Assembly: GCF_030384885.1 (NCBI RefSeq)
Contig: NZ_CP128615.1
Origin: Escherichia coli
GTDB taxonomy: Bacteria; Pseudomonadota; Gammaproteobacteria; Enterobacterales; Enterobacteriaceae
Length of the DNA: 64,000 bases
Direction: 5' to 3' (one strand)
Shown: one piece after another, positions 2,004-29,454 of the stretch
Position numbering within the stretch: position 1 is the stretch's first letter
How the letters are laid out: each line of letters begins with the position of its first letter
Program-made: the position numbers and the translations under genes
The notes under the pieces: generated by a model
The model's input: only the letters and a program-made list of their open reading frames with translations
The model's database searches: none
What the model was told of the DNA's origin: nothing

Positions 2004-2827
2004 GAGTTATTTTTCACGTAGCACACGCACTGTTTATGGATACAGGTATTCTGACCTGAACGCCCGGATCCTTCCACGACAATAAATCGCAGCGCGCGGA
2101 TCCTTTTGTTTGCTTATCACGCATTATTGCGGGTAAAACCAAATACGTAAAGGTATGTTTTGCAGCAGGGATCCCGTATTAAGCCAGTCGTGGCGCGGGC
2201 TGAGGGCTGGTTTGCCGTTTTTGGGAGAAATGGGGTAATGCCAGGGCAAAGATGATCGCAAGGAAAGGAGAAGAATACACAGAGAGGAGAGTTGCGCTAC
2301 GTGAATTCTGGCCCGGGACGTCACCCGTCCCCCTGACCGTTTGACTTTACTCAGGAAGGTTGCAGACTCAACATAGTGACTGATTTATATGTAATCCTGC
2401 CAATGATTAATATAAAAAATAATAATGATTATGCAAAAAATTACTTTCGATAAGATGTATATAATTACAAAACAAGAAAATATATGTGCCTGAAATATAT
2501 CATGCTGAAGATATGAGCTTATATAAGTACCTTATGTATTGCCTGATATACTATTTTCAGAACGGCATGTACATGAATCTGACTCATGATTGCCACTCTC
2601 TTATTTTTTAAGTCCTCGCAAATACAGATAAGTTCTGGCTATAGAACAAGAAAGTACTTTTTAGGAATTTGCATGTGGGTTAACATTTTTTTTGCTATAA
2701 AATACATACAGTTATGTTATCACTTTGCGTTTTGTGCTTAGATCAAAAAAGAATATTCTGATTTTGATAATGTTGAAGGTATTCTGTAAAAAAAATCATT
2801 ATTTATTTTCATCAATTTTGTTAGCGT

Positions 2828-5800
2828 TTGTTTTTATTATCTATTATGAAAGAATTAAAAAAGTTTAATAGATATGTCATGTGTTTCTTTTTGGGGGCTC
2901 GCTTAGCATACGCCGAAAGTATTGACGGTAGCAGTACCATTAATAATAGGGATATCTCCGGATCATTAAATATAGGGGTTTGGAAAGATGCAAGTGTTAA
3001 CATTAATGGCACTGTAAATATTAAACAATATTTTTCGGTAGCTACTTGTAATGGTCAATCAAGCACCTGCCCTACTGGTGGATTAAATGCATCAGCAAAT
3101 ATTAATAACTCTGCAAAGGTAGGTGCAAGTGTTACTATTGTTGGCGACTCTTCAAAGGGAATATTAGATATAGATGGTGGTAGCTCTCTATATACACAGC
3201 AATTATGGGTCTCTGGAAATGATAACGACAAAACCAGTAATTTCAGTGATGACAGTAATGGTTCATTGAAAATTAACAATGGAAGCAATGTTTTTGTCGT
3301 ATTATCTCAAGATAATACCCCATTTAAAGATAACCCGATAAAATGGGATCAAAAAATTATTTCACAAGGAAATAATATAACAGATGGGACGGTTTCCTCC
3401 GGGGATTTAGTCTTGGGTAAAACTGGCAATGGTATTATTGACATAGATAACAAATCAAGACTAGATGTAAAAAATGATGTGGTTGTATCTACGGGGGTCG
3501 ATGGCATTCCTAATGAAAAACCTTCGCTTATAAATATAAATAATGAAAGTGATTTCTTGATTCATGGAAACATGAAAGGAGGGATTTCTGCTGCAGGCAA
3601 GTTACAGTTAAATATGGATAGTAGTTCCAATCTGCGTGTTGATAACAATATTACTGTGGGGATTGGGAGTGGATCAGATATTTCTGTGAGTGCGGCTAAT
3701 GGAAGCTCTATATCTGCAACTGGTGATTTCACTGTAGCTACAGGAGATAATTCGAATGCTAATTTAAATTTAGATGCTTCAAACCTGACAGTGAATGGAG
3801 TTTCTACCATAGGAAGTGGAAATGGCTCCACAACTAAATTTGATATTCAGAATAGCTCTGTTGTAACAAGCGGCAGTGGTATGACTTTGGCTAAAGGTAA
3901 GGGTACACAGGCCAATATAAATATATCCTCTTCGAAGTTAAATACTGGTTCGCTATCAGTTGGTGAGGGAGAGGCTGCTAAAGTCACAATGACCGGAAAT
4001 GGAGCTACCGTTAGCACCGGTAATTCCTTCACTGTTGCAAAAGGTAATAATGCATCCGCGACGCTGGATTACACTGATTCGGAAATTGATATCGGTAGTG
4101 GTTATATCGGAGAGGGCGACGCTGCTGAGACCCAGCTGGAGCTGAATAATTCGAAACTGACTGCCAGTGATAAGGTATTTATCGGGCAGGGAGATACAAC
4201 CCAAACAAACCTGACATTAAATAATCATTCGTCAGTAAATGTGTCCGGTGAGATGTCAGTGGCCCGGGGAAGTTCTGCTTCGGTTGATGTGACTGTTACT
4301 AATGCAATGTTGTCTGCTGACTCTCTGTCTCTTGGTGGAGGAGAAGCTGCTAAAGTCACAATGACCGGAAATGGAGCTACCGTTAACAGCGGTAATTCCT
4401 TCACTGTTGCAAAAGGTAATAATGCATCCGCGACACTGGATTACACTGATTCGGAAATTGATATCGGTAGTGGTTATATCGGAGAGGGCGACGCTGCTGA
4501 GACCCAGCTGGAGCTGAATAATTCGAAACTGACTGCCAGTGATAAGGTATTTATCGGGCAGGGAGATACAACCCAAACAAACCTGACATTAAATAATCAT
4601 TCGTCAGTAAATGTGTCCGGTGAGATGTCAGTGGCCCGGGGAAGTTCTGCTTCGGTTGATGTGACTGTTACTAATGCAATGTTGTCTGCTGACTCTCTGT
4701 CTCTTGGTGGAGGAGAAGCTGCTAAAGTCACAATGACCGGAAATGGAGCTACCGTTAACAGCGGTAATTCCTTCACTGTTGCAAAAGGTAATAATGCATC
4801 CGCGACACTGAATTACACTGATTCGAAAATTGATATCGGTGGTGGTTATATCGGAGAGGGCGACGCTGCTGAGACTCAGCTGGAGCTGAATAATTCGGAA
4901 CTGACTGCCAGTGGTAAGGTGTTTATTGGGCAGGGAAATACAACCCAAACAAACCTGACATTAAATAATCATTCGTCAGTAAATGTGTCCGGTGAGATGT
5001 CAGTGGCCCAGGGAAATTCTGCTTCGGTTGATGTAACAGTCACTAATGCAGTGCTGTCTGCTGACTCTCTGTCTCTTGGTGGAGGAGAGGCTGCTAAAGT
5101 CACAATGACCGGAAACGGAGCAACGATTAGCAGCGGCAATACTTTCACGGTCGCAAAAGGTAATAACGCATCTGCAGCGCTGGACTACTCTGATTCAAAA
5201 ATTAATATCGGTAATGGATATATCGGTGTGGGCGAAAAATCTCATACATTACTAAAACTGGACAACTCAATTTTCCATGCCGCTGGGAATATTGATATAG
5301 GTAAAGGCAGCTCTACTATAGCTACTGTTTCTGTCGGGGCTGGTAGTAATATGTCAATAAAAGGGAATGCTAGTATTGGCGTTGGAGATCAGGCTAAAGC
5401 AAAGTTTTCAGTAAAAGATAGTGTGCTGAATATAGGTAGTAGTCTGGTTCTCGGACAGGGGAATAGTACCGAAGCAGAAATGTCTGTTGAGCATTCTCAG
5501 CTTTATAGTGGTAGCCTGTTGCTTGGGACGGCTAACAATGCTGTCGTTTCTATGGATGCTAATGATGCAGGGATATCTGTCGTGGGAGATTATATAGTAG
5601 CAAAAGGTGATGGTTCAGAAGCTACGTTGATTTATAAAAACTCAGATATTAATCTTGGGAATGGTATACTAGGTGCTGGTTCCGGAGTAAAAACAGATTT
5701 ATCATTGGATAACAGTAAATTTGTTGCATCTGATGGAATAATCATCGGTGAAGGTGATAATGCCATAACTAATCTTTCTATCTCTGATCACTCTGTGTTT

Positions 5801-7783
5801 AAAGGAGAACGTATAAATATTGGTAATGGTGCATATTCAAAAAATTCTATAAGTATAACCGGAAATTCCATATTTGATTTCGGATCATCTCAGGAATCAA
5901 CCATTGGTGAAGGTGATTACAGCCAGTCGTTAGTTACCATTAATGATGCATCAGTTTATGGTGATGGTTCATTAACTCTGGCAAAAGGTAATAATAGTTT
6001 TGCAGTACTGAATCTTCAGGATAATGCAGTGACTAATGCCAACAACATTTCACTTGCTACAGGACTGGGCAGTAAAGCAATCGTGAATGTTAGTAATATG
6101 AATTCCGGACAGTTCAATCCTGTATCTATGGGAGCAGGAGATGGTTATGCGGAAGTAAATTTTGATGGTGTTAATGGCTATACACTCTCAACTAATTTCA
6201 TTTGTATGGATTCCGGTTCATGTGCAGACACTGTCATAAATGTAAACAGAGGGACAGTTTCTCTGTCAGGAACAAATGACTGGAAAGGGCAGATAAATGT
6301 TTATGACGGAACCCGACTGGATGCAAGGGGGAATGATGCCGTTGATGGTATACTGAATGTCAGCAAAGAAGCACAGGTTGACTTTAACGGATACTCGCAG
6401 CATATGACAGGGATAGATAATAAAGGGATGATTTATCTTTCTGACGGAAGTGCTTCATCAGATGTGTATCTGGATAAAGATTATGTTGCACATGATGGTT
6501 CCGGTGTACAGTTCGGGATTTTCGGGCAGAAAGAGGCGGATGTGATGCATGTTAAAGGTGATACATCCGGGAGTTCAGGTATAGTTGTCACGACAAACAG
6601 TAAAAATAAAATAAAGAAAGGTGGCGACATTCTTCTTGTTGAGGTTAATGGGGACTCATCAGGTAGTTTTTACCTTAACTCACTGATTAAGAATGGTAAG
6701 GAGTATAAGGTGACAGGTGACTACATTGATGTGGGGGCCTGGGAGTATGCGCTGAACAAGAAAAGGAAGAATTGGTATCTGAGTGTGGATATGCGTCCTG
6801 AGCCAGGTGCGTTTATAAACAATAGTAAAAGTATGTTAGATATGTTTGCTCTACAACGGTATGACATACCCGGGCAACATCGTTATCCTACATTGTTTGA
6901 AAACTTATATAACAATGGGATGTGGATTCAATTTAACAACAACTCAGGTAGTAATAGTGAGGTGTATGATAATCTCAAGACCAGTTATAGTTTAAATACT
7001 ATGATGATTGGAGGGGATATATACAATTGGACTGATGGATATAACTATTCACATATCGGGATAATGGGCGGGATGGGGAGTGCCGCTAACAAAACAACGT
7101 CAACAAATAATAAAAGAGCTACCGGAAATGTAGACGGTTATACTCTTGGGCTTTATCATGTATTTCAACAAAATATCAGTGATGGACTAAATGAGTCAGA
7201 ACGTCAGGGGCTGTGGACTTATTCGTCTATACAATACATGGATTATGATAACAGCGTCAGTTCAACAAATAATTTCAAGGCTAATTATGGTGTAAATGGT
7301 TTTCGCCTGACAGGTGAGGTTGGTTATCTAAAAAATATAGGTGGCATACAACCAAGCGATTTCTACGTTGAACCTAAGTTATACCTTTCGCATACTGAGT
7401 TGTCTGGAGGTGTAGTTGAAGATCTTCAGGGAGGGAAAATAACTTATCCGAATTCGCTAACTATTATTGAACCAGGAGTATTTTTCTCTTATCGAAAAAC
7501 TCATGAATCGACTTCCAATGATGAAGCAATGTTTAAAGATTATATAAAACAATCTGTAGTCGATGCATGGTTTGGTGGGGGGTATTCATTTAAAACTGGA
7601 AATTATAGTCGTACTAACTTTGATTCAGATATGGTTGAATATAATACATCGGATAATTTCGCTCTTAAGAGTGGTGTTGAATTTGAATTTTTGAAGGATG
7701 CACGTCTTTTATTAACATCCTCATACTCAATAAATAATGATCGCAACTTGAGTTTTATTCTTGGTGGCAATTATTATTTTTAA
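2828..7783 (+). CDS. Autotransporter (type Va) adhesin-like protein with repetitive beta-helical passenger and C-terminal beta-barrel
   Basis: 1651-aa ORF; N-terminal signal-like segment ending LAYAES (start may be the Met at 2846); Gly/Asn/Ser/Thr-rich repeats; C-terminus ends in aromatic ...NYYF typical of autotransporter barrels; AT-rich. Confidence 0.8.
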   Translation: MFLLSIMKELKKFNRYVMCFFLGARLAYAESIDGSSTINNRDISGSLNIGVWKDASVNINGTVNIKQYFSVATCNGQSSTCPTGGLNASANINNSAKVGASVTIVGDSSKGILDIDGGSSLYTQQLWVSGNDNDKTSNFSDDSNGSLKINNGSNVFVVLSQDNTPFKDNPIKWDQKIISQGNNITDGTVSSGDLVLGKTGNGIIDIDNKSRLDVKNDVVVSTGVDGIPNEKPSLININNESDFLIHGNMKGGISAAGKLQLNMDSSSNLRVDNNITVGIGSGSDISVSAANGSSISATGDFTVATGDNSNANLNLDASNLTVNGVSTIGSGNGSTTKFDIQNSSVVTSGSGMTLAKGKGTQANINISSSKLNTGSLSVGEGEAAKVTMTGNGATVSTGNSFTVAKGNNASATLDYTDSEIDIGSGYIGEGDAAETQLELNNSKLTASDKVFIGQGDTTQTNLTLNNHSSVNVSGEMSVARGSSASVDVTVTNAMLSADSLSLGGGEAAKVTMTGNGATVNSGNSFTVAKGNNASATLDYTDSEIDIGSGYIGEGDAAETQLELNNSKLTASDKVFIGQGDTTQTNLTLNNHSSVNVSGEMSVARGSSASVDVTVTNAMLSADSLSLGGGEAAKVTMTGNGATVNSGNSFTVAKGNNASATLNYTDSKIDIGGGYIGEGDAAETQLELNNSELTASGKVFIGQGNTTQTNLTLNNHSSVNVSGEMSVAQGNSASVDVTVTNAVLSADSLSLGGGEAAKVTMTGNGATISSGNTFTVAKGNNASAALDYSDSKINIGNGYIGVGEKSHTLLKLDNSIFHAAGNIDIGKGSSTIATVSVGAGSNMSIKGNASIGVGDQAKAKFSVKDSVLNIGSSLVLGQGNSTEAEMSVEHSQLYSGSLLLGTANNAVVSMDANDAGISVVGDYIVAKGDGSEATLIYKNSDINLGNGILGAGSGVKTDLSLDNSKFVASDGIIIGEGDNAITNLSISDHSVFKGERINIGNGAYSKNSISITGNSIFDFGSSQESTIGEGDYSQSLVTINDASVYGDGSLTLAKGNNSFAVLNLQDNAVTNANNISLATGLGSKAIVNVSNMNSGQFNPVSMGAGDGYAEVNFDGVNGYTLSTNFICMDSGSCADTVINVNRGTVSLSGTNDWKGQINVYDGTRLDARGNDAVDGILNVSKEAQVDFNGYSQHMTGIDNKGMIYLSDGSASSDVYLDKDYVAHDGSGVQFGIFGQKEADVMHVKGDTSGSSGIVVTTNSKNKIKKGGDILLVEVNGDSSGSFYLNSLIKNGKEYKVTGDYIDVGAWEYALNKKRKNWYLSVDMRPEPGAFINNSKSMLDMFALQRYDIPGQHRYPTLFENLYNNGMWIQFNNNSGSNSEVYDNLKTSYSLNTMMIGGDIYNWTDGYNYSHIGIMGGMGSAANKTTSTNNKRATGNVDGYTLGLYHVFQQNISDGLNESERQGLWTYSSIQYMDYDNSVSSTNNFKANYGVNGFRLTGEVGYLKNIGGIQPSDFYVEPKLYLSHTELSGGVVEDLQGGKITYPNSLTIIEPGVFFSYRKTHESTSNDEAMFKDYIKQSVVDAWFGGGYSFKTGNYSRTNFDSDMVEYNTSDNFALKSGVEFEFLKDARLLLTSSYSINNDRNLSFILGGNYYF
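3952..5230. repeat. Tandem array of about 3.4 near-identical 372-bp (124-codon) coding repeats inside the autotransporter passenger
   Basis: Protein repeat LSVGEGEAAKVTMTGNGATV...NAMLSADS recurs; DNA copies at about 4256-4627 and 4628-4999 differ by only a few bases; antisense ORFs recur at 372-nt spacing. Confidence 0.9.
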
Positions 7784-7829
7784 TCGTTACTGGTGAGGGT
7801 TAGCAATCGTCCAGCAAATTATTTGCAGG

Positions 7830-8102
7830 ATGATTGCTATATTCTGTCATTGGTTTTTTGAGGTAACAATGGTAAGATATCATGGCGAATTTACATACTA
7901 TGTTTATCAACAATCTGGACGTTACTTTTTTTGTAAGAAGCTAACGAAAAAGAGAGATACATCAAATTGTAATCATCTTCATATAATTCGAGAATTATCC
8001 TTCAATGAGGACGAGTTAGAATTAATAGATTTCAGCACAGACGGTTTGGACGCAAATGATAAAGAAATAATCAGGGGAATGATTGATGTGTTGAAAAAAT
8101 AA
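7830..8102 (+). CDS. Hypothetical protein
   Basis: 90-aa ORF in AT-rich DNA; no recognisable motif. Confidence 0.25.
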   Translation: MIAIFCHWFFEVTMVRYHGEFTYYVYQQSGRYFFCKKLTKKRDTSNCNHLHIIRELSFNEDELELIDFSTDGLDANDKEIIRGMIDVLKK

Positions 8103-8224
8103 ATATGTAAAAAAAGAATGTTTTATCAAATGTAACATATTTTCTTTTTTGTGCATGTATCTACCATAATCAAAGTAAATATATGCTTTGTATGTTGTTG
8201 ATTCGAATTAAATAATTTCCGACA

Positions 8225-8425
8225 GTGTATATGATCGATTATATGTTTTGGATAGGGGTTGTACTTTGGTCTACAGTAATAGTCATGTGGTTTTATGATA
8301 ACAAGGCATCATGCTCTGGACTTTTTGCCTTAAGTATATTTATATTTTCAGGTGGAGTTATGATTATGTTGTTTTTAATATCTTTTTTATATGGTGTAAT
8401 ATCAGCGTTAGGCCTTGCGGTATGA
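8225..8425 (+). CDS. Hypothetical small membrane protein
   Basis: 66-aa ORF, two hydrophobic segments. Confidence 0.3.
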   Translation: MYMIDYMFWIGVVLWSTVIVMWFYDNKASCSGLFALSIFIFSGGVMIMLFLISFLYGVISALGLAV

Positions 8426-8528
8426 AATTAATCATTGCGGTTGATTTATTCTCAAGTTGAACTTAAAGAAATCATGCTTATGTAAATATACTATTAAAAG
8501 ACAAAAAGAAGCCATTTAACCTGGAGGA

Positions 8529-9224
8529 GTGATGTATAGAGTTAATCATATTATGAGAACAATAAATGAAATGAGTTCTTATACTCCGCACATGAAAGTA
8601 AACAGAATTGCTGAACGGTTGAGTAAGGTGCAAAAAATATCTTTTTGCATCTCTGTTATTTCTTTTTTTCTTCTTGCCATAATTACTTTGACATATGGGC
8701 CGTTTAATACAAAAAGTAACTTGAGTTTTATTAGCGCATTATCTCTTTATTTTATTAATGTCATTATGGGAGTTACATATTTATCAGTTCCTGTAATTAA
8801 TACAATAAAGTATATATATAATTTTAAAGGGGAGGTGGTCAATGAATTAATATATGACATTGATAGTGATGAGCAACATATTGAAGCATTGTTACCTTAT
8901 TCATTAGAAGAGTTGACATATGTGTCAAACTGTATACAGGTAAGAATTCCCAAAATAAAATCAAAATGTTTCTTATGGGGAGGCGGGAAAACAGCAATTA
9001 TATCAATTTTATGCCTATCGTATTCGGCTATTTGTATCGTTAATGGAGGTAGCATAGATGGTATTTTTGTTGGGGAGACTGGTGATAAAATTATTGTCGC
9101 CATCATGTTTTTTATACTTTACACATCATTGATGAATATGTTTTTCAAACAAAAATTGCTATATTTACAAAATTTAAAAATGATAATAGATATGACTATA
9201 AAGATAAAAAGAAATTTCACATGA
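8529..9224 (+). CDS. Hypothetical multi-pass membrane protein
   Basis: 231-aa ORF with several hydrophobic helices; GGAGG RBS-like sequence upstream. Confidence 0.4.
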   Translation: MMYRVNHIMRTINEMSSYTPHMKVNRIAERLSKVQKISFCISVISFFLLAIITLTYGPFNTKSNLSFISALSLYFINVIMGVTYLSVPVINTIKYIYNFKGEVVNELIYDIDSDEQHIEALLPYSLEELTYVSNCIQVRIPKIKSKCFLWGGGKTAIISILCLSYSAICIVNGGSIDGIFVGETGDKIIVAIMFFILYTSLMNMFFKQKLLYLQNLKMIIDMTIKIKRNFT

Positions 9225-9865
9225 CTGCTACTCTAAAATAAAACAACACATGGGAGACTGTCTATTATTATTAATAACGAGTAACATTTGTTATTGCCAT
9301 TTATGGTGCTCCCGGGATCAGTTTTAACCATAAGCAAGAAAATGTTTCTTTGAACGGTTAGACATCACAAATGAGCGTCTGCCAAAAGTTGATGTAGCGC
9401 TTGCGGAATGTGTTGAGATTATATAGGGAAAGAACTACGGGGAATTATTATTGCCAGGCTTTCTCCTATGAATTTTAGCCATATCAATAGACCTTTGCTC
9501 TCAGTAACGCAAAGAGAGCATCTTTACTGATTGAAGGTAGTCAAGCGACATATGGTCACTTATTTTCTCATGTGTCGCTTGACACTATCCTGAAGTTTTT
9601 TAAGTCGATTTACGTCACCCAAAATGAAAAACTCCTTTGCATGAGTATTCATAATAATATCACAATGGTAAAGCTACATGACAGACATCTTAACTTAGTC
9701 AAGAGAGTACATAACAACTTTGCTATTACATATATTCAGGGTTGTTTGTAGTGGTTCACAAAATCAGGACACTGGAATAACCTGTTTCCACTTTTCTTCA
9801 TGTAAGCAAGGCGATAAACCACCATTGTTTGTATGAGGTCGATAAACGTTGTAATAACAATTTAT

Positions 9866-10117
9866 CTACTGCTTTATATCGCGTACTGCATGACTAAAAT
9901 CACCATAACCACCCTTCGCAAGCCATTTACTTTTAAATCTGTGAAAGACTCTTCCCATCGGCGAATTATCCAGGTAATTCCCTCTGCGACTCATACTTTG
10001 CATCGTCTCATAACGGCAGAGTAAAATTTTGTATTTATTGCTTTTATATTGAACACCTTGATCTGAATGCAACATCAGGTGGCCATCACGCGGTTGTGTT
10101 TCCTGAGCACTATGCAA
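9866..10117 (-). pseudogene. IS3-family transposase (OrfB) C-terminal fragment
   Basis: [10 protein letters not shown]...[15 protein letters not shown] integrase-core remnant; no intact element. Confidence 0.5.
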
Positions 10118-10177
10118 GTAAACGGCTCAACAGAACAGTATTGATATTTACTGAGCGGCCAGATCAACTTTTCAGGG

Positions 10178-11383
10178 TTACAGATCGCGTACCAGGTTTG
10201 CCGACCAGTCCTGGATATGTTCAATGCCGTAACACAGCCATTTTTCCAGCTCCACATTATTCAGACGGCATGTGCCGATCAGCGAGTACAGCACCGCCGC
10301 ATGTTCGCCACCACTGCCGGAACCCGCGAAGAGCCAGTTCTTCCGGCCTATGGCCACTCCCCGTAAGGCGTTCTCTGCGATGTTGTTGTCGATTTCCACC
10401 CAACCATTACTGCAGTACACGTTCCGAGCATCCCGCTACTGCAGCAGGTATGCAAACGCTTTTGCCGTATCCGAGTGACGCGCCAGTGTTTTCATCTGAG
10501 TCTGTATCCAGTCGTACAGTGACTGCATCAGTGGCGCAGGTCTGGCTTTTCTTGCCGCCAGACGCTGTTCTGCTGAACAGCCCCGGACCGCAACCTCGAT
10601 GGCATACAGTTCACTGATACGCTGCAGGGCTTCCATGGTGACGTCGGTTGGCGCTCTTGCATGCACATCGTGGATTTTTCTCCGGGCATGGGCCATACAC
10701 GCGGCTTCCGTTATTCTGCCTGATTCGTATAACGCCCGGTAGCCACCGTAAGCATCGGCTTGAAACACACCGCTGTAACCGGCCAGGTGATTTTGTGAAT
10801 GGATACCTTTCCAGCCGGACTGTACGCGAACCAGACCGCCGGGGGCATCTCCGAGCCGGCATCACGGTCATCACGGACGTAGCACCACTGCCGGACGGTT
10901 CGAGTTTTACCGGCCATCAGCACATACTGGCGCAGTATGTTATACAGCAGCTCCAGTAGTTCGCAACGGAACAGATCCAGCGTGGCACGCCTCAGCTACA
11001 CGCCCTGGCGACGGTATATTTCTGACTCGCGGTATAATGGCAGATGGTCTGCATATTTCCCGGTGACTACATGGGCCTAAAGCCCCGGTCCGGAATAACT
11101 GCTGAAGGCTCAGGTGTCTGCACGATATAGTTGCACCGGCAACAGGCCTGTTTCGGGCGTTGTGTTTCGATAACCTTAAAGGTGCAGCTGATAAGCTCTA
11201 GCAGCTCTGACACATTACACCCCAGAGGGCTGAGCTCACCACCACAGGCCGGGCAGCATTCCTCTTCCGGCCGGATGACCCTGGCTTCATAGGGAAGTGA
11301 GGCTGGTAACGATTTACGGGCTGAAGACTGGCGCAGGGAAGATGGCAGTGCCGGGTCATATTGCTCACCAGTGTTTCTGCCAT
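10178..11383 (-). pseudogene. IS66-family transposase (TnpC) remnant, multiple frame breaks, interrupted by IS3
   Basis: Adjacent ORF pieces (10178-10420, 10436-10768, 10711-10923, 11198-11383) with IS66 TnpC-like sequence in different frames. Confidence 0.6.
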
Positions 11384-11663
11384 TTCCTCCTGAAGTGCGC
11401 TGATTCGCTCCTGTGCTTCCTGTATTTACCGTTCGATTTTTGCGCGAAGTTTTTCTGAGCTTTTACCGAACTGCATGCGCTGCAGTTTTGCAACCAGCGA
11501 CTTCAGCCGGTTGGTTTCGGAAGCATAAGTCGCCACCTGCGATGAGAGCAGGCGGTTGTATTCATCCATCTGGCAGATGGTGTCCTGTTGCTTCTTCAAC
11601 CGTGCCAGCCACTGGCCTGCATCAACACCACTCTGATCCTACCCACGTAATATGGACACAGGC

Positions 11664-12479
11664 CTAAGCGAGGTTCTTGTTTTCAAATTGTTCCGGACTG
11701 AGGCCGCCACACCAACTGTGCCGCCGCCACCGATTGTAATCACATTCGATATAATTAAACACCGTTGCCCGCATTATTTCCCGGCTGATAAAGTGTTCTC
11801 CATGGATACATTCCACTTTCAGCGAATGAAAGAAGCTTTCCACGCAGGCATTATCGTAGCAGCAACCTTTTGCGCTCATACTTCCACGCAGATTATGCCG
11901 CTTCAGTTGCGCCTGATAATCTGCTGAACAGTACTGGCCTCCACGGTCCGTGTGAACGATAACGTTCCAGGGCCTCTTACGCCGCCATAGCGCCATCTGC
12001 AGGGCATCGCAGGCCAGTTGCGCCGTCATGCGTGGCGACATTGACCAGCCAATAACGGCACGTGACCACAGGTCAATGACCACTGCCAGATACAGCCAGC
12101 CTTCATCTGTACGTAAGTACGTGATGTCTCCTGCCCACTTCTGGTTCGGGCCACTGGCGTAAAAATCCTGCTCCAACAGATTTTCTGACACAGGCAGGCC
12201 GTGTGCGCGGTAGCTGACCGGGCTGAACTTCCGGGAGGCCTTTGCCCTCAGTCCCTGACAGCGCAGGCTTGCCGCCACGGTTTTTACGTTAAAGGGGTAA
12301 CCCTGAGCACGCAGTTCATCCGTCAGGCGTGGGGCACCGTAACGCTGTTTTGACCGGGTAAAAGCCGCGAGGACAACGCTGTCGCAGTGTTGGCGGAACT
12401 GCTGACGCGTGCTTATCCTTGTCCGCCGCTGACACCACGTATACCAGCCGCTGCGGGCCACCCGGAGCACGCGGCACAT
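11664..12479 (-). CDS. insF: IS3 OrfB (InsF-type DDE transposase catalytic subunit)
   Basis: 271-aa ORF with DDE integrase core (WAGDITY...HTDRGGQY...). Confidence 0.9.
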
Positions 12480-12526
12480 TGCTTTGATGCTGAACTCAGC
12501 CTGATGTTTTTCAATAAAGACTTACT

Positions 12527-12835
12527 TCATTTCAGGCGCTTCGCGAAGTATGTCGCGGCCTTTTGGAGGATAGCCAGCTCTTCATCCCGTTCTGCCAGCT
12601 GGCGTTTGAGACGTGCAATCTCGGTAGACATCTCCAGTTCACGTTCAGAAGACGTCTGCTGATTTTGCTGTTTACTGCGCCAGTTGTAGAGCTGTGATTC
12701 ATACAGGCTGAGTTCACGGGCTGCGGCAGTAACACCGATGCGTTCAGCAAGCTTCAGGGCTTCACTGCGAAATTCAGGCGAATGCTGTTTACGGGGTTTT
12801 TTACTGGTTGATACTGTTTTTGTCATGTGAGTCAC
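12527..12835 (-). CDS. insE: IS3 OrfA (InsE-type transposase DNA-binding subunit)
   Basis: 102-aa ORF, HTH and leucine-zipper region typical of IS3 OrfA. Confidence 0.9.
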   Translation of the reverse strand: MTHMTKTVSTSKKPRKQHSPEFRSEALKLAERIGVTAAARELSLYESQLYNWRSKQQNQQTSSERELEMSTEIARLKRQLAERDEELAILQKAATYFAKRLK

Positions 12836-13735
12836 CTCTGACTGAGAGTTTACTCACTTAGCCGCGTGTCCACTATTGCTGGGTAAGATCACTCTGGCGC
12901 AACGTCTGGCTGATTGCCCGGCTTCGTAATTCAATTCTTTGTACATAAACAGGACGCTTCACCTGCGCGCAATAAACGGTACGGTGAACACCGAATAAAT
13001 AACAAAGAATCCGCACTGGCCGCTTTGCCTTCAGCCGTGTGCTTAGTCCGACAAGTTTTGAGCATGCATTGAGAAAAACTCCGTTCCGTATGCCTTCATG
13101 AGTCTAATCCATTGAAATCAGCGATAGCTGTGATGAACTGTTTAGTGCTAAAACAGCACTACAATTTAACCTATACAACAATTAGGCGTACAATTTATTT
13201 TATGTTAAATTCAGTTTTATGTATCTGATTGCTTAATGTTCAAGTATTTAGATATTAGATAACACAGAATAACTCTTGTTTGGTATTTATTTTTTAGACG
13301 CTAGTCATTTAAAAAATGATAACTATAAGAATAATCACAAATTTAAACAACAATAAAAGTTATAGTTTTCAATGTCTTAATAAACCATGTTAACAATTTA
13401 TGCTTTATTCAATTCATTACATTTTCTTTAAGAATTTTCACGTTTAAAATAAAAAAATCATCACGGACAGGAGGTGTTTAGTTTATAGCTCAAAGAATTA
13501 ACATGATGATAACATCAGCGCAACCATTCTTTCTCCTTTTTGTTTTGATTTAACATAAAGGATTTTAGAATTTTAAAATCAAATAATGCTAAATAATAAA
13601 ATTGGAAAATAACACTTATTTTTCATCATAAAAATACCCATAAAATGGGGGGGGGGCAGCATTCATTATAATAAACAATATAAACTCCGACTTTGTGCTT
13701 GCCCTCAAAAAGAGGGCTTCTTTTAAGAAGATGAT

Positions 13736-17799: not shown

Positions 17800-17937
17800 A
17801 TCGTCACCAGTATATGCAGCGTCAGCTGCATGGAAGGCGGCACTTCGTTGTTGCATATGGCACAGGAGTAAAACCGCCGAAGCCCGGCGTAAGCCGGTAC
17901 GTATTGATAGGTTTCACCTATCCCATCCCTGCCCTGC
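17800..17937. repeat. Direct repeat copy A (structured, about 140 bp; candidate ssDNA promoter/ssi-like element)
   Basis: Shares long identical stretches (GGCATGGAAGGCGGCAC, GGAGTAAAACCGCCGAAGCCCGGCGTAAGCCGGTAC) with 20329-20469. Confidence 0.6.
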
Positions 17938-18282
17938 GAGGCCATGCGGGCTTTCAGCGATGATGAAGTATAGATAAGCCCTTTTAACCCCGTTAGCGCG
18001 GCGTAGCCGCGCTAACGGGGACTTAGTGCTGACAGCTTGCTGGCAGTACTTAGGGGCTGTATGTCAGAGTTTAAGTGATTTTTCTTGACGGAACACGGTA
18101 GCTGCTAAGCTATATCCGCTTTCAGCCATGAGAGAGCTTCTGTGCGCGGTCAGAGTGGTCCCGACGAGGGGTTACCCGCAGTCGGGGCGTATCTCCGCGT
18201 TAGCGGACCGTCAGGGCCGCTAACGCGCGTGTATGGGATCAGTTTGGATATTCGAAATTATTGTACGTTTAACGAACCACAC

Positions 18283-18318
18283 ATTAATGCTAATGTATGC
18301 ATACATTAGCATTAATGA
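18283..18318. repeat. 36-bp perfect palindrome
   Basis: CATTAATGCTAATGTATGCATACATTAGCATTAATG is its own reverse complement. Confidence 0.7.
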
Positions 18319-18352
18319 TGAAGGAAAAGAATAACAATGGCAGTCAACCCAC

Positions 18353-18826
18353 TTATTTTTTGGATTTCTTAATTTTCGTCTGATAAAGCCGCTTTACCCG
18401 TTCAATTTCTGCCAGCGTTGCGGACCAGTGTAGTTCGGCGGCATGACGATATCTGGCAGCCATTTTTTCCACCATCTCCGGATTGCTGTCCGCGCTGCGG
18501 TGCTGACGCCCCTTCTCCCCAAAAACTTCAACAACCAGCCACTGGCTTCCGGTTCTGCCGAACAATGCCTTGCACAAACGTCTCACAGTCAGCGGGGTTA
18601 AATCTGGATCGGGATCGTAGGCAATGGTAGCAAAAATAAAGCGCAGCATTTCTGATGTCTTGTAACGCTTTACGCTGGCAGCCAGGCGTGAGGCACGTTG
18701 CGGTGCTTCCCAGCGGTCGTTACTGTAATTAGCCACTTCAGCCAGATAATCCTTTTCAAGTTTTTCAGCCGTGTAGCACCTGCAGCCTAAAAAAAGCCGC
18801 ATGGCCTCCCTGGTTTTGTCTCTCAC
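18353..18826 (-). CDS. Hypothetical protein bracketed by palindromes
   Basis: 157-aa ORF; no motif recognised. Confidence 0.45.
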   Translation of the reverse strand: MRDKTREAMRLFLGCRCYTAEKLEKDYLAEVANYSNDRWEAPQRASRLAASVKRYKTSEMLRFIFATIAYDPDPDLTPLTVRRLCKALFGRTGSQWLVVEVFGEKGRQHRSADSNPEMVEKMAARYRHAAELHWSATLAEIERVKRLYQTKIKKSKK

Positions 18827-18829
18827 ATA

Positions 18830-19687
18830 TCATCCCTCATTAATGCTAATGTACGCATACATTAGCATTAATGAGGGATGATATGCAGCAATAGCGTTTA
18901 CCACCCCAGCCGTCATCCGTGCGTCGGCGATCGCTGAGTGTGCCAGCCCTTCCCAGGTCAATCCGGCCTGGCTGGCAGCACTGGCCAGTGAAATCGTGCC
19001 ATAGCGGTTGGTGACCCCATAATATCCTGCAGCCAGCTCCATCGCACAATATACCGTCATTTCTTCCAGCCAGTCAGCCGGATCTCTATGTGCGGCAGCA
19101 GTCTGTTTCAGAATGCGGATGTCGAACCGGGCATTAAAGATAATTACTGGTCGGCCCCCGATAGCATGACGCAGTTGCCGCGCCACATCTGTCCATAATG
19201 GTGCGCCGCAGAGAGCCTGCTCACTGATACCATGCACAGCGGCGGCCTGCGCCCCGATGGCGACCGTGGGCTTCAGTCTGGTTTCAAATACCACCTGACC
19301 GGACGCATTGGTCAGGCCGATTTCCAGGGCTTCCGTGGTATTGTCCAGTCCTGTTGTTTCAGTATCCAGAAAGAGCGGTGCCAGACTCAGCCAGTCATAT
19401 GCCTGCCGTGCCATCCGGCCACTGGTGCTGTTAAGTCTGGATAAAACGGAAAGTCGCTGGCCAGCCAGAAGTTGTTTACTCGTCAGTGGGCGTTTCTCAC
19501 GCATCGGAACACAGTCTGCAATTCGGTATACAGCGAACCTGTCACCATAAGTGTTTTTATACCACTTAACTGGCTCAGCACCGGGGGCTGGCTTCATTCT
19601 GAATTCATCGCGCAGACGTCCTTTCGAGAAACATCTGTTTTCGGCAATCGCCTGCGCACGTCTGGTGGCCAGCTCATCATTATTCAT
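18830..19687 (-). CDS. DnaQ-like (DEDDh) 3'-5' exonuclease with about 100-aa N-terminal extension
   Basis: Exo motifs FLDTETTGL, HGISEQAL and HSAIADARMTAGV in a 285-aa ORF. Confidence 0.7.
   Translation of the reverse strand: MNNDELATRRAQAIAENRCFSKGRLRDEFRMKPAPGAEPVKWYKNTYGDRFAVYRIADCVPMREKRPLTSKQLLAGQRLSVLSRLNSTSGRMARQAYDWLSLAPLFLDTETTGLDNTTEALEIGLTNASGQVVFETRLKPTVAIGAQAAAVHGISEQALCGAPLWTDVARQLRHAIGGRPVIIFNARFDIRILKQTAAAHRDPADWLEEMTVYCAMELAAGYYGVTNRYGTISLASAASQAGLTWEGLAHSAIADARMTAGVVNAIAAYHPSLMLMYAYISINEG
18832..18878. repeat. Near-perfect palindrome (about 46 bp) related to the one at 18283
   Basis: CCCTCATTAATGCTAATGTACGCATACATTAGCATTAATGAGGG; one central mismatch. Confidence 0.7.
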
Positions 19688-19732
19688 GGTTCTTGCATCT
19701 CCGTCAGACGTTTTTATATCCGGACAGCCCCT

Positions 19733-20014
19733 TTATGGCCACTTCTGTGCAGTATGCAATACACGCAGGATATACACTTTTCCCCACTGGCTATCGATCT
19801 CATAAACCAGAACAAAATGCGGGTAAATAACCAGTTCCCGGATACCTTCCACACGACCGTTGCGGCCTTTATACGGCTGTCCGGCCAGGCTGCTGGCTGA
19901 ATAACCAATCCGTTCGTCCAGTTCAATGGCGGCCATCAGGTTCTGCTCCGTAATGTATCCACGAATGCACTTCCTGTCCTGGCTGGCCAGTATGGTCCAG
20001 AATATCTCCATCAT
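19733..20014 (-). CDS. relE: RelE/ParE-family toxin (type II TA)
   Basis: 93-aa ORF; 4-bp overlap with the upstream antitoxin ORF; C-terminal ...VYILRVLHTAQKWP. Confidence 0.7.
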   Translation of the reverse strand: MMEIFWTILASQDRKCIRGYITEQNLMAAIELDERIGYSASSLAGQPYKGRNGRVEGIRELVIYPHFVLVYEIDSQWGKVYILRVLHTAQKWP

Positions 20015-20301
20015 TTACCGGCGACCTTCCTGCTCATTTCATCCCGCCATGCGGTCGCGGAGGATTCGACCATGTCATGTGGAAGCACATCACCGCGCCC
20101 GAGTTGCTGACGTCCTGCCTCAACCTGGTCACGGAACCAGGTATTATGCTGCCGTTCAACGGTCTGGCGCATAAAATCCCGGATTAACTGAGAGCCATTA
20201 CGGTCCATGCTTTTTGCAGCGGCCATAAAAGCATCCTTCAGTTCAGCGTCAATTCTTAAACTCATATTAACCTGTGTCATTTGCCATCTCGTCATTACCA
20301 C
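20011..20301 (-). CDS. relB: RHH antitoxin (RelB/DinJ/ParD-like)
   Basis: N-terminal MSLRIDAELKDAFMAAAKSMDRNGSQLIRDFM ribbon-helix-helix-like segment; true start may be the internal Met at about 20265. Confidence 0.65.
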   Translation of the reverse strand: MVMTRWQMTQVNMSLRIDAELKDAFMAAAKSMDRNGSQLIRDFMRQTVERQHNTWFRDQVEAGRQQLGRGDVLPHDMVESSATAWRDEMSRKVAGK

Positions 20302-20328: not shown

Positions 20329-20469
20329 ATATCGTCACCAGGATATGCCGCGTCAGCGGCATGGAAGGCGGCACGCTGTGGTTACATGTGATACTGGAGT
20401 AAAACCGCCGAAGCCCGGCGTAAGCCGGTACTGATTGATAGATTTCACCTTACCCATCCCCGGCCCTGC
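20329..20469. repeat. Direct repeat copy B (paired with 17800-17937)
   Basis: Same orientation and conserved core as copy A; sits between the antitoxin start and the TraC fragment stop. Confidence 0.6.
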
Positions 20470-28927: not shown

Positions 28928-29454
28928 CCACCCATCTGTTTGTGTCGGTACTCTGAGGGGGCATGGGGCAAAAACCTGAAAAAGGTATTCGCCTGGCTGC
29001 CCCGCTCCGGGCGAAAATGAAGGTACAGCGACGGGATGAATAGCACTTTTTGCTAAAGGAATATCAACAATAGCATGCTATAGTTACTTTAATGGGTAGC
29101 TGCGCCATTGACAATGGTGTGGTTTTCTGTTAACATTACTTTCATAGTATTGTTCCGTCCCGCTCCACTCCAACAAATCCGTTTATTTCCCGCCAGACCG
29201 GTTATCACCATTCCGGCCCGGATTTTTTTGGATTTTTTTCCGGGGAGCACCCGGGACGAGCTTAAAATCGGTATGACAGACAGGAGGATGCGAATGAACA
29301 CATCATAGCAGAATTGAAAGAGAAAACATTCTGTACGGTATCAACAGCGTTCACGTGTGTGAGGCGCCGGGTGCCTTTTATCTGAAAAAAGAGGTCAAGA
29401 AGATGATCAAGATTAACACATCAGTGTTAACAACAACCTGCCCAGGAGGGCTTT

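Follow-up and report, generated by a model that had tools for sequence, protein, structure and literature searches.

A conserved palindrome at both ends of the plasmid gene yadA, its upstream copy overlapping the predicted promoter, may belong to a self-contained, autoregulated module

Palindromic DNA next to a small gene can have several meanings in bacteria. Autoregulated repressors have palindromic operators lying over their own promoters, and looping between two operators is known from lac (O1/O2), gal (OE/OI) and deo. Repetitive extragenic palindromic (REP) elements with REP-associated tyrosine transposases show a small gene between two short palindromic repeats, with copies elsewhere, tens to hundreds of them being dispersed in a genome. 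Quasipalindrome-templated mutations, arising by hairpin template switch, have been described in Escherichia coli, and elements of the Tn3 family are bounded by two inverted 38-base-pair (bp) terminal repeats (GGGG...ACGYTAAG) and duplicate 5 bp of their target. The locus described here shares something with each of these systems: in a stretch of 64,000 nucleotides (nt) of the E. coli contig NZ_CP128615.1, analyzed at its full length and hereafter called the window, two long and near-identical palindromes bracket an open reading frame (ORF) of 157 amino acids (aa), ORF157, which is the plasmid gene yadA of the R64/R100 naming scheme and is unrelated to the Yersinia adhesin YadA. We consider, with somewhat better than even confidence, that these palindromes are conserved cis-elements of a self-contained module made of a promoter with its palindrome, yadA and a second palindrome, the whole being autoregulated by YadA. 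The mechanism would be of a known kind; the layout is unusual, with identical sites at both ends of one small gene, sites that are better conserved than the gene and are also mosaic breakpoints.

The closest described locus is that of PSLT047 on the Salmonella virulence plasmid pSLT. A primary transcript of its own, up to 740 nt long, and a detectable protein have been described for PSLT047, and a 597-nt antisense RNA, IesR-1, converges on it; inside host cells, the PSLT047 mRNA goes up and the protein goes down, the protein increases when a resistance cassette is present, and the regulation of PSLT047 was ascribed by the authors to antisense pairing (Gonzalo-Asensio et al. 2013, PMC3815029). 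According to the same study, PSLT047 has orthologues in some Salmonella serovars only; the pair of palindromes, the overlap with the promoter and the wide YadA family are not reported there. PSLT047 is a homologue of YadA (about 52% identical, 162 aa; positions 2542-3030 of our locus L030), and it lies between the same two palindromes as the gene in the window. The two loci differ in that the window does not have the IesR-1 region and that its yadA follows the yacAB-exonuclease genes. A full-text literature search for the palindrome sequence gave no paper, and a search on the R64-style gene names gave a transcriptome table only; the palindrome element appears to be undescribed, and the YadA family is undescribed as well.

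In the window, yadA is coded on the minus strand (18353-18826), starts with GTG and specifies a small, basic, all-helical protein. The downstream (3') palindrome is perfect over 36 bp at 18282-18317 (CATTAATGCTAATGTATG|CATACATTAGCATTAATG), one base to the left of where the initial annotation had placed it (18283-18318), and holds a conserved 32-bp core at 18284-18315 (TTAATGCTAATGTA-TGCA-TACATTAGCATTAA). The upstream (5') palindrome, which is extended in this plasmid lineage, covers 60 bp at 18826-18885, with 28-nt arms that are 100% complementary on either side of a 4-nt centre, CGCA; the longer, near-perfect version first noticed at 18832-18878 is therefore real, but its length had been underestimated. 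Within it we find an ancestral 32-bp core (18840-18871) and a 36-bp core (18838-18873) that departs from the left copy by one central T>C change. It contains, as had been noticed, the stop codon of the neighboring exonuclease gene and the start codon of ORF157, together with the ribosome-binding site of the latter. The pair is far from chance, as the initial annotation had supposed: the 34-nt core pattern has two sites in the window, both of them palindromes, and none of 100 dinucleotide-preserving shuffles matches it, and a 22-nt core allowed up to three mismatches gives the same two sites only.

The palindrome is widespread. A 44-nt query that holds it matches 1,091 PLSDB plasmids, and the 36-nt form is present in 569 of 5,426 complete E. 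coli genomes, at 1,366 plasmid places versus 14 chromosomal ones, which disposes of the possibility, raised at the outset, that it might occur only here; with one genome per species, the matches span many Enterobacterales. We gathered loci from one genome per species, from metagenomes (the 80 closest loci, 81-99% identity) and from individual look-ups of distant homologues, which were fetched singly. The upstream copy is recognizable in all the full-length YadA homologues examined, down to about 30% protein identity; it usually ends 8-14 nt 5' of the start codon, beside the ribosome-binding site, and in most of the YadA loci examined, a second copy stands at or just after the stop codon. Two loci (L089 and L099) have an additional palindrome further upstream. 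Across 122 distant locus pairs, mean identity is 59% for the coding DNA, 91% for the upstream palindrome and 89% for the downstream one, and it is about 30%, which is near random, for the 25 nt beyond each palindrome. The core reads GCTAATGTA-YGYR-TACATTAGC: hardly any variation is seen in the inner 9 bp of either arm (GCTAATGTA / TACATTAGC), the outer 5 bp differ between loci, in many cases symmetrically (TA, CG or AT at pair 1; TA, AT or GC at pair 5), and the 4 nt at the centre (YGYR) change freely, with no symmetry. Some downstream copies are altered: in L057, L058 and L071, one arm, that is, half of the palindrome, is deleted between 9-bp direct repeats (TAATGTATG), and L055, L060 and L069 have single-base insertions, in one arm in some of these loci and in the opposite arm in another.

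The position of the upstream copy is what points to a regulatory role. Its arm contains the hexamer TAATGT with a TG one base before it, making a predicted extended -10 element (TGcTAATGT; 18859-18867, minus strand). We aligned unrelated upstream flanks on this TAATGT, grouped them into families and looked at the -35 spacing: TTGnnn is found 16-18 nt upstream of the hexamer in 13 of 18 flank families of the upstream copy read in the sense direction, versus 2/18 in its antisense direction, 0/16 and 1/20 for the downstream copy (sense and antisense, respectively) and 1/16 for palindromes that have no yadA beside them ("yadA-less" below). The information-content profile peaks clearly at the -35 position (binomial P ~4e-14), a distant locus, L028, has a perfect TTGACA at 17-nt spacing, and distant loci share homologous -35 hexamers and spacers, as in TTGTTGCTGTCAG vs TTGTTCTGTCAG. 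With a -10 element in its arm and TTGnnn at this distance, the upstream palindrome overlaps the predicted yadA promoter, from about -19 to +13 relative to a putative transcription start near 18852 on the minus strand. A protein bound symmetrically there would keep RNA polymerase out, the site being placed as an operator is, and since the predicted start falls inside the palindrome, the own transcript of yadA would not carry the hairpin at its 5' end. The conserved -35 and spacer lie beyond the palindrome, so that the upstream boundary of the conserved unit is not the palindrome edge. Of the regulatory site, cruciform or single-stranded hairpin, first imagined here, the regulatory part thus holds, in the form of an operator-like site in double-stranded DNA; nothing shows a cruciform or a single-stranded hairpin. 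Two other ideas were tried and dropped: yadA-less copies as promoters for other genes, of which only one flank family in 16 has a -35 at the right spacing, and sites for LexA, CRP, Fur or KorB, none of which fits in a by-eye comparison with the consensus sequences.

Homologues of YadA are found in 3,543 of 72,556 PLSDB plasmids (about 5%), mostly from Klebsiella, Escherichia and Salmonella; the carriers include IncF, IncI/K, Klebsiella IncFII(K)-type and Salmonella virulence plasmids, and among the PLSDB records listed, all annotate the gene as "hypothetical protein". We obtained no significant match in Pfam, with the single sequence or with a 39-member alignment, nor in NCBIfam, PADLOC, PHROGs or a PDB sequence-profile search. 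The AlphaFold model consists of six helices and nothing else (predicted local distance difference test score, pLDDT, 93.6); a PDB fold search with it returned no convincing relative, and a search of AFDB50 matched only uncharacterized proteins. A model of two copies joined by a linker reached a predicted template modeling score (pTM) of 0.47, too low to read a dimer geometry. The protein is basic, with an isoelectric point (pI) of 9.6-9.9. It shows no signature of HUH/Y1, DDE, serine or tyrosine recombinases and has no match to PF01797, be it in Pfam or in the fold search.

YadA is probably the protein that binds the palindrome, a candidacy suggested by its strict co-occurrence with the sites, its basic pI and the confinement of the motif to plasmids. 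In the module that we favor, YadA would bind the palindrome as a symmetric oligomer and repress its own promoter; the downstream copy could be a second binding site, acting through looping or as a roadblock, and, once transcribed, it may form a stem-loop that ends or insulates convergent transcripts, as IesR-1 in pSLT suggests. Like the operators of autoregulated repressors, the symmetric yadA site covers a -10 element and a predicted start, and the second site, about 550 bp away, is at a distance compatible with looping. It is unlike them in that the second site stands exactly at the 3' end of yadA and is also an RNA stem-loop, and in that the operator-like site is more conserved than the protein across the family; YadA itself, a candidate binder only, also lacks their helix-turn-helix or ribbon-helix-helix signature. 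One has to keep in mind that several observations weigh against this reading. YadA has no recognizable DNA-binding domain. The core remains unchanged while YadA diverges to about 30% identity, which could point to a conserved partner other than YadA, and IncX4 plasmids have the palindrome and no yadA anywhere, so that its function may be independent of YadA. The pair is not universal either: L029 has its palindrome about 100 nt upstream of the gene and none downstream, the downstream copy is absent from L033, and that of L022 is degenerate. As for the promoter, the -10 hexamer fits the consensus at 3 of 6 positions only, and 5 of the 18 upstream flank families have no TTG.

The downstream copy, folded as RNA, gives a 16-bp stem (-21.4 kcal/mol, z = -7.3), and in the window, the upstream copy read on the yadA strand gives a 29-bp stem (-47 kcal/mol) that takes in the ribosome-binding site as well as the start codon's first base. 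In pSLT, the start of IesR-1 deduced from the published primers is position 1939 of L030, and its 597 nt bring the end to 2535, one base past the downstream palindrome (2501-2534); this 3' end rests on coordinates, namely primers and length, and concerns the pSLT homologue only. The "terminator-like stem-loop" described for this RNA would then be the downstream palindrome, around which the authors found heterogeneous transcript 3' ends and suggested RNase III (PMC3815029). The opposite changes of mRNA and protein reported for PSLT047 are consistent with negative autoregulation. Moreover, the tagging primer of that study puts the resistance cassette between PSLT047 and the downstream palindrome; since the cassette separates the gene from the palindrome, an operator or looping effect is an alternative to the antisense explanation of the authors. 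The published manipulations of IesR-1 and PSLT047 thus also displaced the downstream palindrome, and they do not separate an operator effect from an antisense effect.

Plasmid comparisons repeatedly place the limits of homology at the palindromes. The exonuclease, YacB and YacA of the window are about 92% identical at the protein level to most of their E. coli relatives and YadA is 97-99% identical, which indicates an allele mosaic with its boundary at the upstream palindrome. In ColIa-type IncF plasmids, the genes for colicin Ia and its immunity come after the exonuclease and replace yadA, with a junction at CATTAACATG; in CP088425.1 (L117, 2440-2520), the colicin junction ...TTATCATTAACATG... 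matches the outer edge of the upstream palindrome at 13 of 14 bases. NZ_HG739084.1 contains a segment of about 10.4 kb (about 2,510-12,910) with inverted ends of about 195 bp each (L005, 2505-2720; L119, 7700-7915). Either end consists of a Tn3-type repeat, then a linker, then the palindrome and a further 130 bp or so, and the window is homologous to these ends exactly as far as the palindrome edge. The segment lacks a 5-bp target duplication. Between its ends are phd/doc, a MipZ-like ATPase, a RelE-family toxin-antitoxin pair and a J-domain gene, as well as a third palindrome of variant sequence (TTAAAGC...GCTTTAA); the IncX4 backbone around the IncX4 palindrome shares 92-93% identity with part of this cargo.

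The window itself has a single 38-bp terminal inverted repeat of the Tn3-family type at 18235-18272 on the plus strand (GGGATCAGTTTGGATATTCGAAATTATTGTACGTTTAA; GGGATCAGTTTGG...GTACGTTTAA). It reads GGGA...ACGTTTAA, which is of the right type, and occurs in one copy only in the window; its inner end faces yadA, and the downstream palindrome starts 9 bp beyond. Such a repeat followed by a linker and the palindrome is a common feature of E. coli loci, the gap being 9-10 bp in the window and in L005. A related miniature element of 258 bp interrupts yadA in CP057886.1, a sister plasmid of the window (L003, 3533-3790), with paired Tn3-type repeats and a 5-bp duplication, TAGTT. The likeness to Tn3-family and miniature elements lies in this 38-bp GGGG...ACGTT-type repeat beside the downstream palindrome and in the element of CP057886.1; the window has a single repeat and no transposase, and the palindrome lies outside the miniature element itself. 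Other yadA-less palindromes are carried by Klebsiella IncFII/IncR plasmids or stand beside Tn3-type terminal repeats. The one on the IncX4 plasmid NZ_CP026728.1 (L118), at 29205 on a plasmid with no YadA homologue, and those of Photorhabdus (L012, L016) are just 3' of homologous operons coding for a RelE/HigB-type toxin and a helix-turn-helix antitoxin, the Photorhabdus copies following such higBA-like toxin-antitoxin operons. As to whether the palindrome flanks different cargo genes in other plasmids, it does so in these yadA-less copies (IncX4, Tn3-type element ends, toxin-antitoxin operons); usually, the cargo is the same yadA family.

Could the palindromes act mainly as RNA, forming stem-loops at either end of the yadA message for protection against exonucleases, for RNase III processing in operon transcripts or as a translational operator beside the ribosome-binding site, possibly bound by YadA? 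Both copies fold into stems of 14-16 bp, well below shuffled controls, the centre behaves like a 4-nt loop, with YGYR free and asymmetric, the sense strand has more G.U than A.C pairs (19 vs 6 upstream, 9 vs 6 downstream), the upstream copy ends close to the start codon (8-14 nt before it), and the downstream copy of pSLT is the 3'-terminal stem-loop of IesR-1, with its heterogeneous ends. We nevertheless find this rather unlikely: the own message of yadA, if it starts inside the palindrome as predicted, lacks the upstream arm, the near-invariant inner 9 bp are not explained by structure alone, the G.U excess comes mostly from one Klebsiella clade and does not reflect independent events, and Rfam gave only sub-threshold chance matches, to microRNA hairpins. 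The initial annotation also offered bidirectional terminators that would isolate the gene. As ordinary intrinsic terminators with no sequence-specific role, the palindromes are hardly credible, for a plain terminator would not stay about 90% identical where the coding DNA is at 59%, and there is a promoter at the upstream copy. With an AU-rich stem and no T-run after it in any lineage, neither copy resembles an intrinsic terminator, and a terminator scan calls neither of them; what speaks for the idea is that both are stable hairpins between genes and that the 3' end of IesR-1 coincides with the downstream copy in pSLT.

The other two explanations take the palindrome as a DNA site for something other than yadA autoregulation. 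It might be the recombination site of a mobile cassette processed by YadA, in the manner of REP elements and their transposases, of integrons or of Xer dif sites, and the layout invites the comparison: a gene between two copies with gene-less copies scattered elsewhere, homology that stops at palindrome edges (the ends of the NZ_HG739084.1 segment, the colicin Ia junction CATTAACATG), an exonuclease and a yadA with different identities to their relatives (about 92% vs 97-99%), deletions within palindromes and a palindrome lying a few bp beyond 38-bp Tn3-type repeats. We hold it to be improbable. The conserved unit reaches past the palindrome to the -35 and the spacer, YadA has no recombinase signature or fold match, unlike the REP-associated transposases with their HUH/Y1 domain, and the palindromes are perfect, confined to plasmids and present in 1-3 copies per plasmid; no recombinase is linked to them, and we found neither target-site duplications nor pairs of empty and filled sites for the palindrome-yadA-palindrome unit. 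The architecture does not help either: a perfect 14-4-14 palindrome, read directly, is not the imperfect one with extrahelical bases of integron attC and has no GTTRRRY motif, with no integrase annotated among the neighboring genes, and it is not the 11-6(8)-11 of Xer dif/pdif with its XerC and XerD half-sites, the half-site GCTAATGTA being unlike the consensus GGTGCGCATAA or TTATGTTAAAT. What remains of the recombination or cassette boundary proposed at the start is the breakpoints and deletions at palindrome edges, and we read these recurrent homology breakpoints as a by-product of a strongly conserved 32-bp identity and of hairpin instability and not as site-specific mobility; being near-identical everywhere, the palindrome would also act as portable homology for the exchange or deletion of plasmid segments. 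Alternatively, another conserved factor, from the host or from a plasmid, might bind the palindrome, yadA being one of the genes controlled and the yadA-less copies the rest of the regulon. The same inner core serving YadAs only about 30% identical and the palindromes that persist on IncX4 plasmids without YadA would both fit, yet the core is nearly absent from chromosomes (14 places vs 1,366 on plasmids), a distribution that speaks against a host regulator controlling chromosomal genes, no gene other than yadA is consistently linked to the sites, the exonuclease being near in some lineages only, and just one of 16 yadA-less flank families has a -35 at promoter spacing; we give this explanation little credence.

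Whatever binds it, the upstream palindrome of the window has a history of its own. In the relatives L002 (IncF) and L004 (IncI/K), it consists of the core of about 34 bp only, and the roughly 105 bp before this core hold the native last codons of the exonuclease, its stop and the yadA -35. Aligned with these two loci, the window has TGAGG (18872-18876) in place of 109 bp. TGAGG is the exact complement of CCTCA (18835-18839) across the core, and the site of the junction is a 9-bp inverted repeat, CATATCATC / GATGATATG (18826-18834 and 18877-18885), that was already present in the ancestor. About 914 PLSDB plasmids have the junction in its undeleted form; the records that resemble the window over the whole 1.9-kb query number roughly 20-43 (19 listed single-piece matches; 43 records with at least 99% identity), and a metagenome contig (L072) is also of the window form. 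By these alignments, the 60-bp form is derived, having grown from about 34 bp through a recent deletion of 109 bp, in which 5 nt were filled in by copying the opposite flank, and the event looks like a hairpin-templated strand switch resolved at the pre-existing 9-bp repeat. Indeed, the fill-in is complementary to the opposite flank, the junction shows microhomology and the derived state is rare, as expected of a quasipalindrome template switch, and, as in such mutations, the 5 nt turn an imperfect extended inverted repeat into a perfect one; the case differs in that the switch was coupled to a 109-bp deletion at a 9-bp repeat and that coding sequence was fused into the palindrome.

The consequences concern both genes. 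The last 12 native codons of the exonuclease and its stop were removed, and the palindrome now supplies its last 15 codons (18830-18877), so that the native tail LELLQEQARL(K/E)I (...YHLELLQEQARL(K/E)I* in L002/L004) has become PSLMLMYAYISINEG in the window (...YHPSLMLMYAYISINEG*); the catalytic domain, around residues 105-270, is untouched. The yadA -35 was lost, the nearest TTG now being at 21-nt spacing, and in read-through transcripts, the long hairpin would bury the ribosome-binding site; yadA is probably expressed less in this lineage.

The window belongs to an IncF (FIA/FIB/FIC) E. coli plasmid, and its positions 17900-19800 share 99.9% identity with CP057595.1. On the minus strand, the gene order is a RepFIIA-type repA, the origin, the toxin-antitoxin pair yacA/yacB (20011-20301 and 19733-20014), the DEDDh 3'-5' exonuclease gene yacC (18830-19687) and yadA. 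A 135-nt direct repeat, 86% identical between its two copies (17800-17934 and 20331-20465), encloses the yacA-yacB-exonuclease-yadA block; both copies are similar to sequence found 3' of the IncFII origin in other plasmids, and the left one is followed by an extra 167 bp or so (17935-18101) that contains a hairpin, CCCCGTTAGCGCGGC / GCCGCGCTAACGGGG. The palindrome also gives rise to spurious reading frames in gene calls and ORF lists. This is the case in the window for 18142-18309 (+) and 18846-19049 (-), and for the proteins P0123, P0134, P0143 and P0162; N-terminal extensions MHTLAL.../MRTLAL... begin at an ATG in the palindrome centre, other spurious ORFs end in ...NANVCIH, and such frames inflate the annotated lengths of YadA (e.g., the 210-aa entries).

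The exonuclease is close to yadA in only some lineages. Homologues of the DEDDh exonuclease, 39-74% identical to that of the window, lie near yadA in L028 (3611-4477), L030, L008, L024, L080 and L081, about 1.4 kb upstream of it in L030, L008 and L024, and the two genes occur in at least four arrangements (same strand, divergent and convergent directly adjacent among them); the Klebsiella clade has no exonuclease gene within 2.5 kb of yadA. These varied neighborhoods hint that the two genes may be functionally linked.

With about 90% identity kept across loci whose yadA genes share 59%, the 32-bp element is among the most constrained non-coding sequences of these plasmids. The palindromes explain a breakpoint of homology that recurs in IncF plasmid mosaics, and the long upstream form is a clean case, found in nature, of a hairpin-templated deletion by which the end of a neighboring gene was rewritten. 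There is also an outside chance that YadA is the founder of a new class of palindrome- or hairpin-specific nucleic-acid-binding proteins acting in trans between co-resident plasmids. If so, the sites at yadA, on IncX4 plasmids, beside toxin-antitoxin operons and at Tn3-type ends would form a small inter-plasmid network, which would regulate neighboring genes and provide crossover points for module swaps, in the way of REP elements and with no recognizable transposase.

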